DNA from: Myxococcales bacterium
Lineage (GTDB): Bacteria; Myxococcota; UBA727; JABDBI01
Reading direction: 5' to 3'
DNA length: 64,000 nucleotides
Assembly (NCBI GenBank): GCA_023248595.1
Contig: JAHFEG010000010.1
Coordinates: 1,092 to 65,091, forward strand
The translations under genes were made by a program, and so were the position numbers. Below are positions 60,227 to 63,430 of this stretch, piece after piece. A model generated the notes under the pieces. The model saw only the letters and a program-made list of their open reading frames with translations. It was not told the origin of the DNA and made no database searches. Every line of letters starts with the position of its first letter. Positions within the stretch are counted from its first letter, which is position 1.

Positions 60227-63200
60227 ATGCTTTGGCTTTCAATGAAAGAGCTGGGAGTGGTAGCTGTGACAATTTCTCGAAAATTACCTGCAAATATAGC
60301 TTTAGCAAAACCGTTTGCTCAAAATCAGCACGACAGCCCAGTGGCCAGCTCAGACAACGGAACCATCGATAATCATGATCACATTGAAGTGGCTCACACC
60401 AAAGCAGAGAAAGCTGAATCTGTTTGGAATAAAATGATTGATCTGACTTCTATTGATTTGAATGCGCTTAAAGAAGGTACATTACGAATTTCAGTTCCTT
60501 TTAAAGCAGGGCATTATGCGTTTCCTGGTCTTTATGAAGACGCTGATGTTAAAGTCAAAAAACATACCCATGCCTTGTTGTCTATTGCGATTAGTAAAAA
60601 TGAAAAAAATGAAGCAGTCATGAATGGTGTGAATCTCGAATTTAATCCACCACTTAAAATCAAAAACCCTGCTAGTGCATTTGAGCATAAAAATTATTTG
60701 GTGGATAAAATTAAAGATATGCTAGCCGACGTGATCGTGCGAGGATTGGCCATTTCTAAAGAAGGAAAAGTCAACATTGATGGGGCTATTTCAAAAGGTG
60801 TTTTTGGCGAAGAAGATTTGGGGCCACGGATGTCGACGAATCACTTTCCTGTCGTAGATATGAAATTAAAAGCATTGCTTGACTCGAATTTACAAGAGTC
60901 TTTGAGTTCTTCTGGGCACAAGCTTTCGGGGACCTGGCAATTTTTTGATATTCTAAAACAGATTGGAGCTATGACAGAGCATGCACAATATGAACTCAAA
61001 TTAAAAACAGATCCGATTGCCATCGGCGCAGGCTATAAAGATTGCCGACTTTGGACCGAAAAATCACAAGCAGAAATTAATTTCAGAGGCCGCGCGAAGA
61101 TAACGAATTCAGGCGAGATTGAAATTGCGGGTGATCAAAATGAAAGCCATATCTCAACAGGCGACATGACAGTCCATGTTGGAGGCGAGGGGGTTATTTC
61201 AAATTTGGATCAACATTCGCCATCGATTTTGGCACACGTTGGCATGCGCGCCGAAGTTAAAAAAGTGCAAGGTGAAGCAGCGCAAGCAGGGATGAAAATT
61301 CCGTTTACTTTAGGTGGCGAGCTGGATGTGATTTCGGGACATGCTTTTGTAAGTGTTGATGCTGATCGCAATTTCAAATTAAAAGATGCGTCTTCTTTGT
61401 CTCTTCAGATGCATGCACGTCTACCCTCGGATTTTTCGGCGAAAAGGGAGTCTCATGCCGTTAAAATTGGTTCTAGCGATTTGCAAATAAATGCAGGGAT
61501 TAATTTTGAGTTTGATCAGGACTTGCAGATTAATTCTGGAGAAGCTTTGTTGCGAGCAAAAATGGATCATCTTGAAGGCGAGATGGCTGGTTATCGAGCA
61601 ATTCTTGAAGGAGAAGTTGGCGCTGGCATCAGGGCAAATCATGTGCGAAAAAAAGCAAAAGAATTTTACCCCTCTTTTTTCGGAGAAGCTGAATATTCAT
61701 TAACACCCGCAGCTCAGCCTTCTTCCATAGTTCCTGGATTTAAGGCTGGCCAGGGCAAGTTGGATTATCAATTTAAATCCGATAATACTTTATCACTTGA
61801 GTCTCGTCATAGTGGCTTAACGCAAATGGTTTCCTCTTTGACAGAATTGGTATGGTCACCAGAAAGCATTTGCGATCCAAAAACACCGGCAGCAGGCGCC
61901 ATTGGGAGTTTTGCTTGGCGCAAAAAGATTGAAGAAATCACCAAGGCTCCTATTCGTTCTGGTAATCAAGCGCAATTGCTTGTCGATGGCGTGATGTCAT
62001 ATCCTAAAAAGTTGGAATTGATTAACAATGCGCAAAAATCAATTTGCTTGCAAGCGCTTGCTTTTAAAGACGATGAAACTGGTATGGAAATGGCCAAAGC
62101 ACTTGTGAACGCCAAAAATCGAGGTGTCGAGGTGCATGTCATTGTCGATTCTTTAGGAAATATTGAATCCCTGCAGGAGTTTTTTAAAGGAAATAAAGTT
62201 TATCAGCTCTTTGAAAAAAACCAGGTTGATTTCAAACTTTATAATGGCGCTCTTGAGCAAGGATTTAAAGAAGTCATAGAAGTCATTGCCAGCAATGAAA
62301 AACTCCAAGAAAAAATGGCTGCAAGCATGGCTGATATAAGTCAGGCCATGGGCGCTCTTCATTTTATCGCGCAAGCAGCAATCGGTAAAAATGATGTTGG
62401 TTTAAGTCCAGAAAATCGGGAAAAGTTAGAGATTGGTTTAAGCAGAATGTGGGGAGGGCAGCAGGGCATAGCACCTGAAGAAGCCATAGCGCAATTGTCT
62501 GCTCTCACCGCCGACAATACGATTTATCTATTTGAAATGGCACAAATTGTAAAACAAATGGCAACGTACAATAATCGTTGGCATGAAAAATATTTGATTG
62601 TCGATGGCAAAAAAGCGATTATAGGCAGTATGAATGTTGCTGATGTGCATTTATTGGGTGGCACAGGAAAAATGGTGGGGTCTCCAAAGGAAAGACCAGC
62701 TTGGAGTGACATCGATCTTTTATTAGCAGGACCTGCCGTCCATGATGCCTATCAACATTTTTCTGACAATTGGGAAATCGTCAGTGGTGTGCCTTTGCCT
62801 AAACTTCAGCCTCAAGAAGCGCTTGTGGAATTAAATGGTCAGGCTGGCGTCGATATCCAGGTCGTGCATGGTCAACCGCGCATTCATGGCGATCACCATA
62901 TGGTCAATCTGTTGGTTGAAAGTGTCAAAGCCTTAAAGCCTGGTGAAAAATTTTATACAGCCATTGCATACTTTATCCCGACGGGTTCTTTTGATTCCTA
63001 TGCGCAAGCATTGATCGACGCCGCTCAGCGCGGTGTTGATGTTCGGGTTGTTACCAATAGTGAAAAAAGCACGGATTTGCCTCAAGTTGTGAAAGCAGCA
63101 AAATCTGTGAGTTATCGCAAACTTCTGAAAGGTGGTGTTCGCTTGTTTGAGTGCTCAGGAGACAGAACGCTACATACCAAGGCAACTGCGATTGGAAGTA

Positions 63201-63430
63201 GTGTCGCTATTGTTGGCTCGGCGAATGCGAATAATCGTACAGGCAGTTTGGATTCAGAAAGTGTTGCCGTGCTTCATGATGCTCGATTGGCTGAAGAAGT
63301 AGAAAAAGTTATTTTGGCAGACATGGATCCCGGTGTGGCCCACGAAATTCATTTAGATGATATTGAATATGGCCCTGTCATGGAACAGCTCGAAAATGCA
63401 GCCTGGGCAGTTTTAAAAGATTGCATGTGA
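60227..63430 (+). CDS. large protein with novel N-terminal region and C-terminal phospholipase-D/cardiolipin-synthase-like double-HKD domain
   Basis: 1067 aa. HKD-1 'WHEKYLIVDGKKAIIGSMNVAD', HKD-2 'LHTKATAIGSSVAIVGSANANN' (HxK...GSxN). The N-terminal ~550 aa have no motif I recognise. Confidence 0.7.
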   Translation: MLWLSMKELGVVAVTISRKLPANIALAKPFAQNQHDSPVASSDNGTIDNHDHIEVAHTKAEKAESVWNKMIDLTSIDLNALKEGTLRISVPFKAGHYAFPGLYEDADVKVKKHTHALLSIAISKNEKNEAVMNGVNLEFNPPLKIKNPASAFEHKNYLVDKIKDMLADVIVRGLAISKEGKVNIDGAISKGVFGEEDLGPRMSTNHFPVVDMKLKALLDSNLQESLSSSGHKLSGTWQFFDILKQIGAMTEHAQYELKLKTDPIAIGAGYKDCRLWTEKSQAEINFRGRAKITNSGEIEIAGDQNESHISTGDMTVHVGGEGVISNLDQHSPSILAHVGMRAEVKKVQGEAAQAGMKIPFTLGGELDVISGHAFVSVDADRNFKLKDASSLSLQMHARLPSDFSAKRESHAVKIGSSDLQINAGINFEFDQDLQINSGEALLRAKMDHLEGEMAGYRAILEGEVGAGIRANHVRKKAKEFYPSFFGEAEYSLTPAAQPSSIVPGFKAGQGKLDYQFKSDNTLSLESRHSGLTQMVSSLTELVWSPESICDPKTPAAGAIGSFAWRKKIEEITKAPIRSGNQAQLLVDGVMSYPKKLELINNAQKSICLQALAFKDDETGMEMAKALVNAKNRGVEVHVIVDSLGNIESLQEFFKGNKVYQLFEKNQVDFKLYNGALEQGFKEVIEVIASNEKLQEKMAASMADISQAMGALHFIAQAAIGKNDVGLSPENREKLEIGLSRMWGGQQGIAPEEAIAQLSALTADNTIYLFEMAQIVKQMATYNNRWHEKYLIVDGKKAIIGSMNVADVHLLGGTGKMVGSPKERPAWSDIDLLLAGPAVHDAYQHFSDNWEIVSGVPLPKLQPQEALVELNGQAGVDIQVVHGQPRIHGDHHMVNLLVESVKALKPGEKFYTAIAYFIPTGSFDSYAQALIDAAQRGVDVRVVTNSEKSTDLPQVVKAAKSVSYRKLLKGGVRLFECSGDRTLHTKATAIGSSVAIVGSANANNRTGSLDSESVAVLHDARLAEEVEKVILADMDPGVAHEIHLDDIEYGPVMEQLENAAWAVLKDCM

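Follow-up and report, generated by a model that had tools for sequence, protein, structure and literature searches.

A possible non-canonical exporter cargo: a phospholipase D-family protein with a predicted all-beta N-terminal domain encoded beside a C39-peptidase ABC exporter in a Myxococcales bacterium

Introduction

Contig JAHFEG010000010.1 of a Myxococcales bacterium (assembly GCA_023248595.1) carries, within the 64,000-nucleotide stretch analysed here as the window (positions 1,092 to 65,091 of the contig), a gene for a large phospholipase D (PLD)-family protein that directly follows the genes of an ATP-binding cassette (ABC) exporter and its HlyD-family adaptor. The C-terminal half of this protein has the two-lobed fold of lipid-type PLDs and keeps their catalytic residues, the N-terminal half is a new, autonomous all-beta domain as modelled, and the family is linked to exporters of the peptidase-containing ABC transporter (PCAT) type recurrently, not universally. 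The explanation preferred here, which is put forward tentatively and as falling short of probable, is that the protein cleaves phospholipids, is targeted to membranes and leaves the cell through the co-encoded ABC/HlyD system as a non-canonical cargo. The two His-Lys-Asn half-sites would form one PLD active site and make the ~115 kDa protein a phospholipid phosphodiesterase or phosphatidyl-transferase, with the all-beta domain binding membranes or lipids and positioning the catalytic core. The exporter, composed of HlyD, a C39-peptidase ABC protein and a second ABC subunit, would carry the protein out as an unusually large cargo, and outside the cell the enzyme would attack the phospholipids of foreign membranes, whether of prey, host or competitor.

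The gene, its product and the catalytic half

The elements of the PLD gene are as follows, with residues numbered from the first codon of the maximal open reading frame (ORF) and structural assignments taken from an AlphaFold2 (AF2) model.

60227-63430, + strand: maximal ORF of the PLD-family protein, 1067 aa; probable true start GTG 60266
60266-60448, + strand: variable, disordered N-terminal extension, residues 14-74 (AF2, alignment)
60449-60976, + strand: N-domain sub-module 1, residues 75-250, predicted beta-rich, with conserved NPAS and KD..AD motifs
60977-61816, + strand: N-domain sub-module 2, residues 251-530, a predicted up-and-down meander of ~19 beta strands
61907-62158, + strand: first part of the PLD N-lobe, residues 561-644, aligning to the N-lobe sequences of Nuc, PssA and NucT
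62159-62572, + strand: insertion of about seven helices within the PLD N-lobe, residues 645-782
62582-62635, + strand: His-Lys-Asp (HKD) motif 1, HEKYLIVDGKKAIIGSMN, residues 786-803, canonical
63173-63226, + strand: HKD motif 2, HTKATAIGSSVAIVGSAN, residues 983-1000, with Gly for Asp

The ORF exists as a first-pass annotation of this DNA had described it, with 1067 codons on the forward strand, and only its start needs correction. GTG 60266 lies 8 nt downstream of a GGGAG Shine-Dalgarno sequence and aligns with the ATG of the homologue in a related locus (L015; 71% identical), and because homologous start and ribosome-binding site both point to this codon, the product is probably a protein of 1054 aa (114.8 kDa, pI 5.8), the ATG at the ORF start (60227) and the database call (ATG 60242) probably both being too far upstream. 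An identical protein, P0001, is already present in public collections, where it is called from M6. The absence of a Sec signal peptide, as noted earlier, was corroborated: a Kyte-Doolittle scan of the protein found neither a signal peptide nor a transmembrane segment (maximum 19-residue mean 1.3), the most hydrophobic 19-residue window of the ORF sits 5' of the likely start, and the N-terminus is disordered in the AF2 model.

Assignment of the C-terminal half to the PLD superfamily is secure at the profile level. PF13091 (PLDc_2) matches with E = 4.2e-33 (114.4 bits against a cut-off of 27), a search proposed in the first-pass annotation in which the HKD motifs do align to the profile, and PF00614 matches residues 781-808, which span the first motif, with 27.3 bits against a cut-off of 21.9. 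The first motif (HEKYLIVD...GSMN) is complete in His, Lys, Asp and GSxN. The second (HTKATAIG...GSAN) retains His, Lys and GSxN, its sole missing element being the Asp, in whose place stands Gly990, just as had been read from the sequence. When six close and seven distant relatives were aligned, the His, Lys, Gly-Ser and Asn positions of the two motifs showed little or no variation, and of 30 full-length family members that were inspected, 28 have Gly and two have Ala where motif 2 should carry its Asp. Because 28 of 30 relatives share it, the Gly is a hallmark of the family and not a sign of decay; the description of the domain as 'degenerate', correct as to the replaced Asp, is overstated and misleading with respect to the catalytic residues, all of which are kept. 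An insertion between the PLD N-lobe and the first motif, put at ~100 aa in the first-pass annotation, is real and longer, at ~135 aa (645-782); it is modelled as helices (649-781, predicted local distance difference test (pLDDT) ~77-97) and occurs in all relatives in a divergent form (28% identity). The family further shares a conserved C-terminal helix ending in LENAAWAVLKDCM.

With 49 family sequences as input AF2 returned a model with a pLDDT of 87 and a predicted template modelling score (pTM) of 0.80, whereas an input of six sequences gave a pLDDT of only 47 and an unusable model. The top Foldseek matches of the former in the PDB are two-lobed lipid enzymes, namely human PLD1 and PLD2, PssA, plant PLD and Streptomyces PLD (E = 2e-14 to 1e-11, probability 1.00). 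In the PLD superfamily two His-Lys-Asn half-sites form one active site, which acts via a phosphatidyl-histidine intermediate, and by analogy the two half-sites found here should build a single site as well. Residues and model together argue that the C-terminal half is a catalytically competent, two-lobed lipid-type PLD or phosphatidyl-transferase, and we infer that its substrate is a lipid. Among NCBIfam models the best similarity is to the cardiolipin synthase model TIGR04265 (5e-32, 111.4 bits against a cut-off of 290), followed by the ClsB model NF008427 (4e-31, 108.4 bits against 281), with NF009107 reaching 88.3 bits against 787. All these scores lie far below their cut-offs, and the protein does not belong to the Cls equivalogs; the N-terminal transmembrane helices typical of ClsA are likewise missing (no 19-residue Kyte-Doolittle mean above 1.3, and a disordered N-terminus).

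Members of the superfamily also include nucleases, and a DrmC- or Nuc-like enzyme acting on nucleic acid, perhaps as a component of anti-phage defence, has to be weighed. Weak matches to DrmC (PADLOC 4e-16; DISARM_DrmC_I, NF038319, 6e-14, 52.1 bits against a cut-off of 133) and to NucT models exist, and Nuc (1byr) is the best sequence match in the PDB, at E = 0.07. These are generic superfamily similarities far under cut-off, however; cardiolipin synthase models score 20 orders of magnitude better, and the single-chain, two-lobed fold of ~500 aa best matches lipid PLDs and PssA. Neither DISARM genes nor those of any other defence system lie in the vicinity, where PADLOC reports only generic ABC-ATPase similarity, and a defence-system reading was set aside on finding that PADLOC returned only generic PLD matches for the protein. 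A nuclease function is consequently regarded as very improbable.

The N-terminal domain

The N-terminal half had been called unrecognisable, and so it has remained: with a threshold as loose as E = 10, residues 1-559 have no match in Pfam or NCBIfam, nor do they match any PDB sequence. When the N-domains of 12 relatives were compared with Pfam at E = 10, only singleton matches arose (Gmad2, FecR, Pertactin), none of them recurrent. Residues 1-74 are disordered in the AF2 model (pLDDT < 50), and the N-terminal extension varies in length from 37 to ~97 aa across the family, with a mean pairwise identity of 16%. The folded part that follows consists of two modules. The first (75-250) is predicted to be beta-rich with few helices, mostly at a pLDDT of 80-96, and holds residues N147, P148 and D164 that are nearly invariant among 49 sequences. 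The second (251-530) is modelled as ~19 amphipathic strands, some of them 16-22 residues long, at a pLDDT of ~90-96, and is the fastest-evolving folded part of the protein (22% mean pairwise identity). In composition the N-domain is acidic and rich in Ala, Gly and Ser.

An exhaustive search of 1.84 billion representative proteins with a profile of the N-terminal part alone retrieved 74 clusters, 46 of them at E <= 1e-10, and most are proteins of 900-1130 aa with the same architecture. Other arrangements occur too. The N-domain alone constitutes a complete 515-aa gene (P0010, L030 1915-3462) next to that of a trypsin-like protease, and sub-module 1 is found at the C-terminus of a PlsC/DAGAT-type acyltransferase encoded by a complete 845-aa gene (P0060, L016 53-2590). 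Occurrence, conservation and model mark it as a new, autonomous all-beta domain, and because it is paired with two different glycerolipid enzymes (PLD and PlsC), a role in recognising lipids or membranes can be proposed, in which the domain would bind the membrane or lipid and position the enzyme. When Foldseek compared the full-length model with the PDB and BFVD, the top ranks held PLD-domain matches only and the N-domain had no significant match, lower and insignificant hints being to an autotransporter beta-domain, chorein-N and a porin (probability <= 0.14). A reading of the meander as an outer-membrane barrel was also considered and found unlikely, given that the protein carries no signal peptide, that its strands are only moderately hydrophobic on one side and that the domain has the acidic, Ala-, Gly- and Ser-rich composition noted above.

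The exporter cassette upstream of the PLD gene

That the PLD gene directly follows an exporter is borne out by Pfam and NCBIfam, which identify HlyD, C39-ABC and ABC genes:

55402-56265, + strand: HlyD-family periplasmic adaptor, first gene of the cassette, 287 aa (TIGR03794 NHLM_micro_HlyD; Pfam HlyD_3, Biotin_lipoyl)
56262-58412, + strand: PCAT 'ABC1', 716 aa (Pfam Peptidase_C39 at 1.9e-36, ABC_membrane, ABC_tran), with the C39 domain at residues 6-130
58430-60169, + strand: 'ABC2', permease/ATPase subunit without a peptidase domain, 579 aa (TIGR03797 NHLM_micro_ABC2; ABC_membrane, ABC_tran)
60170-60265, + strand: 96-nt spacer between ABC2 and PLD, with GGGAG 8 nt before GTG 60266

The HlyD protein scores above the cut-off of its model (TIGR03794, 177.5 bits against 156.2) and ABC1 just below (TIGR03796, 850.8 against 853.3), while ABC2 reaches 634.1 bits against 709.4 for TIGR03797 and aligns from profile position 114, the first 113 positions being absent. 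Over its full length ABC1 matches PCAT1 (4ry2, 3e-82), ComA and HlyB (1e-69), and the Cys/His/Asp triad of its C39 peptidase is intact (QMEASECG, NHFVVL, NDPASG) and conserved in all cassette loci. On the same strand the order of genes leading to the PLD gene is rpsA (S1), rimO, amidase, HlyD, C39-ABC, ABC2, PLD.

The spacer between ABC2 and PLD has the same length of 96 nt in L015. In the window it holds no terminator-like site, and promoter-like sites within it are no commoner than in shuffled sequence; the PLD gene is probably co-transcribed as the fourth gene of the exporter operon. As the gaps between amidase and HlyD (52 nt) and between ABC2 and PLD are short, no room is left for a precursor-peptide gene, and a motif scan of the 64-kb window and of the loci retrieved for comparison found no small double-glycine precursor, and none of the nitrile hydratase leader peptide (NHLP)/Nif11 type.

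Two further features of such cassettes may be recorded. The amidase-signature gene between rimO and the exporter (53851-55350, + strand) recurs in L001 and L013 with 70-83% identity and is absent in L003 and L012, which limits its tie to the cassette to close relatives of the window. The ABC2 proteins of L013 (5984-8077) and L003 (5481-8165) bear an extra N-terminal region of ~120-310 aa, without a Pfam match, that the ABC2 of the window does not have.

Linkage of exporter and PLD genes across related loci

Linkage was counted over 19 loci with enough upstream sequence, a metagenome scan having supplied only three usable neighbourhoods. An ABC exporter lies directly upstream of the PLD gene, on the same strand, in seven (the window, L015, L012, L013, L003, L009 and L025), and five of these, the window included, show the full order HlyD-ABC1-ABC2-PLD (L015, L012, L013 and L003 being the others, with PLD proteins 71%, 70%, 46% and 33% identical to that of the window). 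Identities to the window co-vary between the four proteins of the cassette, the values for HlyD/ABC1/ABC2/PLD being, in the same order of loci, 75/81/77/71, 69/73/73/70, 44/49/44/46 and 41/44/42/33. The remaining two loci form a separate, more distant group that still has ABC genes directly 5' of PLD: a C39-ABC gene, a 212-aa ORF and an ABC subunit gene in L009, and an ABC ATPase gene in L025. Adjacency and co-orientation, with gaps of ~60-120 nt, hold down to ~26-44% ABC1 identity, and in L012 the four-gene block is placed between flanks that both differ from those of the window (a caleosin-like gene upstream, alanine racemase downstream). An initial conclusion from L001 alone, that exporter adjacency is not conserved, was overturned by L015, L012, L013 and L003.

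Persistence at such distances, the intact block between different flanks in L012, the ABC genes of the distant group and the lack of a terminator between ABC2 and PLD in the window all speak against a simple account in which the two have no functional link, the PLD gene being an old resident of the rpsA-rimO region and the exporter, adjacent by descent, serving double-glycine peptides encoded elsewhere. The same loci also provide the case for that account. Within the available sequence the exporter is absent in 12 of 19 loci, among them L001, the closest relative (72% identity), where amidase and PLD genes meet in a clean junction. Genes for S1 and/or RimO lie near PLD in at least seven loci (the window, L001, L003, L013, L014, L019 and L020), and this rpsA-rimO linkage, which is unrelated to transport, is conserved at least about as widely as the linkage to the exporter; gene order in the lineage thus seems to be generally conservative, and adjacency by itself is weaker evidence than it first looks. 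Since the C39 peptidase is intact and ABC1 falls within 3 bits of the NHLP equivalog cut-off, ordinary peptide cargo would moreover be expected of the exporter, and in NHLP/Nif11 systems precursors may be encoded far from the transporter. An absence of any functional link is nonetheless judged rather unlikely. The first-pass annotation had named, as an outcome that would undo its proposal of a secreted cargo, an N-terminal half belonging to a known housekeeping domain with conserved synteny unrelated to transport; of these two elements the synteny is present, in the form of the rpsA-rimO linkage, and the housekeeping match is not.

Several observations concern genes that adjoin PLD homologues. 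In L003 a 544-aa phosphoesterase of the PF04185 family (phospholipase C/acid phosphatase), with a lipoprotein signal, is encoded between ABC2 and PLD (8162-9796, - strand), which places a second phospholipid-type hydrolase within one cassette, on the opposite strand. Downstream of PLD, towards the end of the window, lies a gene for an NfeD-family membrane protease homologue (63490-63900, + strand; NfeD1b_N, 1e-20); the PLD-NfeD junction occurs in L015 and L003 too, and in L015 a Band 7 (SPFH) gene follows.

Can the PLD protein be a cargo of the exporter?

Any proposal of export has to contend with the rules by which PCATs are understood to choose their substrates. C39 peptidases recognise leaders of the form Leu(-12)...Glu(-8)-Leu(-7)...Gly(-2)-Gly/Ala/Ser(-1), with hydrophobic residues at -4, -7 and -12 (PMC6363468, PMC6959990). 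The cavity of PCAT1 is put at ~15,000 cubic angstroms and has room for a single 66-residue CtA cargo (PMC6959990), and the PCAT system of MccV (CvaAB) exports a 116-aa cargo poorly (PMC10231218).

Measured against these rules, much weighs against the PLD protein as a cargo. Because the C39 triad of ABC1 is intact, a Gly-Gly/Ala/Ser leader should be needed, and the first 110 residues contain no G[GAS] dipeptide; similarity of the N-terminus to NHLP/Nif11 leaders was not found either, NCBIfam giving no match at E = 10. At 1054 aa the protein exceeds known PCAT cargo about tenfold in size. Features of the route taken by large type-I substrates are missing as well, the exporter not being of the inactive-peptidase type with a C39-like domain (CLD) that such substrates use, and a regular-expression search finding no repeats-in-toxin (RTX; GGxGxD) motifs in the protein. 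An outer-membrane factor gene is missing from the cassette. The closest families (Cls and PssA), as well as the PlsC fusion partner, are biosynthetic enzymes of the cytoplasmic face, and this affinity, together with the lack of a recognised export signal, fits an enzyme that stays there. Added to these are the exporter-less loci and the rpsA-rimO linkage described above. The claim of the first-pass annotation that the protein is secreted cargo of its neighbour has therefore fared unevenly, being favoured by recurrent linkage in seven of 19 loci, by the co-divergence of the four proteins and by the L012 block between other flanks, and opposed by the missing double-glycine leader, by size, by the 12 loci without an exporter and by the housekeeping linkage.

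Two leads were examined and dismissed. The segment LTSIDLNALKEG (residues 73-84; L73-x3-D77-L78-x2-L81-x2-G84) fits a leader at -12, -11, -8, -7, -4 and -1, but its -2 position is Glu and is never Gly in the family, its -1 position varies among G, A, I, L, F and R in 49 relatives, and it runs into the first strand of the domain. A correlation between the length of the N-terminal extension and the presence of an exporter seemed promising in the first 13 sequences, but P0014, P0016 and P0027 run counter to it, combining extensions of 70-97 aa with the absence of an exporter. If the neighbouring genes do export the PLD protein, they would have to do so by rules not yet described.

The most serious competing explanation keeps the protein inside the cell, as an enzyme of membrane-lipid remodelling that docks on the inner leaflet by way of its beta domain and performs transphosphatidylation in the manner of Cls or Pss. 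In one variant the enzyme would change the producer's own membrane, for immunity or adaptation, so as to withstand a membrane-active peptide that leaves through the PCAT; in another it would be a co-regulated part of envelope maintenance; in neither would it be a cargo. Such a role agrees with the lack of a signal peptide or transmembrane segment, with the best profile similarities being to cardiolipin synthase, ClsB and PssA, with the fusion of sub-module 1 to a PlsC/DAGAT-type acyltransferase in P0060, with a stable chromosomal position beside rpsA-rimO and with the failure to follow known PCAT cargo rules (PMC10231218). It agrees less well with scores far under the Cls and ClsB equivalog cut-offs (111 against 290 and 108 against 281), with a family limited to 74 clusters among 1.84 billion representatives, with neighbours that elsewhere are secreted hydrolases, or with fast divergence relative to housekeeping neighbours and duplicated paralogues, which are unusual for a core lipid synthase. 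Bacteriocin operons classically hold an immunity gene beside the transporter, which lends the immunity variant some appeal, but no peptide precursor that would require immunity was found nearby. On balance, intracellular remodelling is considered somewhat unlikely.

Distribution, divergence and neighbourhoods of the family

The PLD family is small and lineage-restricted, and relatives occur in metagenome-assembled genomes (MAGs) whose titles name Myxococcota and Bdellovibrionales. One contig, JABDBI010000003.1 (L003/L027), is titled 'Methanobacteriota archaeon'; it carries bacterial S1, RimO, HlyD and NfeD genes and is syntenic with the window, and the label is very likely wrong.

Divergence is distributed unevenly along the protein, the catalytic core showing 50-57% mean pairwise identity (57% for residues 561-644) against 22% for the meander, 28% for the insert and 16% for the extension. 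It is also fast: between the window and L003, RimO retains 73% and S1 58% identity and the PLD protein 33%, so that the latter diverges much faster than its housekeeping neighbours. Tandem paralogues of 1003 and 969 aa follow S1, RimO and astacin genes in L020 (9001-14921), in a genome that has the HAL-MutY-PTPS-S1-RimO synteny of the window, and the MAG XB_MAG857 holds two copies (L006 and L007). At loci without an exporter, frequent neighbours bearing signals are an astacin, a phospholipase C (PLC)-like phosphoesterase, an acid phosphatase, an M23 peptidase and a CUB lipoprotein. Fast divergence, paralogues and hydrolase neighbours fit an enzyme of conflict or predation better than a core lipid synthase and, like the disordered, variable N-terminus of a protein without signal peptide or transmembrane segment, may hint at action outside the cell.

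Eukaryote-like genes were encountered both in the window, where the gene at 40521-42548 (- strand) encodes 675 aa that include a SET (lysine methyltransferase) domain (PF00856, 2.3e-6), and beside PLD homologues, in the form of an ankyrin-repeat protein (L025 5537-6331) and a caleosin/EF-hand protein with a signal peptide (L012 4316-4945). A 611-aa PKD-domain protein is encoded at 2940-4775 (- strand) of the window, and its only Rfam match is a tRNA at 14102-14173 (+ strand). The rest is housekeeping: an SdhA-like flavoprotein, ThrRS, PheT, RecG, RNase E/G, histidine ammonia-lyase, IMPDH and MutY.

Relation to known systems

Four groups of known systems invite comparison. ClsA, ClsB and PssA resemble the PLD protein in being single chains with two HKD half-sites and give its best profile matches; PssA provides the best target-normalised structural overlap with the model (TM-score ~0.64-0.66), and ClsB and PssA share with it the lack of transmembrane helices. 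The PLD protein differs from Cls and PssA in scoring only about a third of the equivalog cut-offs, in its 135-aa helical insert and in its Gly for Asp, and from the Cls and Pss families in its 460-aa all-beta N-terminal domain as modelled, its fast evolution and its very narrow distribution.

PLD-family toxins and effectors that are secreted or translocated include Tle5/PldA-PldB of Pseudomonas, LpdA of Legionella and Ymt of Yersinia, which either depend on secretion systems of type VI or type IV or remain unsecreted, and we know of no such effector that is linked to a C39-peptidase ABC exporter. The first-pass annotation had likened the architecture to these proteins, and the likeness holds by description, in that they too are large two-HKD lipid-type PLDs without a Sec signal, with extra non-catalytic regions and genes beside a non-Sec secretion apparatus; a sequence relationship beyond the PLD core was not detected, no search having been aimed at these proteins.

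On the side of the transporter, the PCAT and NHLP/Nif11 systems (PCAT1-CtA, ComA, CvaAB-MccV) have the same combination of HlyD, a C39-ABC protein with an intact catalytic triad and a second ABC subunit, whereas the sole conserved non-transporter partner here is a leaderless 1054-aa enzyme of about ten times the usual cargo length. RTX secretion by HlyB/HlyD is similar in that a large, acidic, Sec-less protein is encoded beside an ABC transporter and HlyD adaptor, yet HlyB-type transporters have an inactive C39-like domain and substrates with C-terminal signals and GGxGxD repeats, while here the C39 triad is intact and RTX repeats are lacking.

Significance

Practical importance will be limited, for a small family from uncultured lineages, until a carrier organism is in hand. 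The conservation of the second motif indicates that Gly can stably replace the motif-2 Asp in an otherwise intact PLD. In its most far-reaching form, which is considered unlikely, the preferred explanation would have a heterodimeric exporter with an active C39 domain, together with HlyD, export a leaderless PLD of folded size (115 kDa) as a new class of PCAT cargo with its own mode of recognition. The beta N-domain would then be the module responsible for recognition or for insertion into membranes, and the enzyme a lipid-attacking weapon of a predatory or host-associated lineage. If the PLD protein is a cargo, it breaks two rules taken to define PCAT secretion, the Gly-Gly leader and small cargo, and the few weapons known to leave by type I secretion would be joined by an enzyme that hydrolyses lipids, a result that would surprise specialists in the field. 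If it is not, the family would still offer a new autonomous beta domain that has at least two glycerolipid enzymes as partners, and with it a candidate module for the recognition of membranes or lipids.

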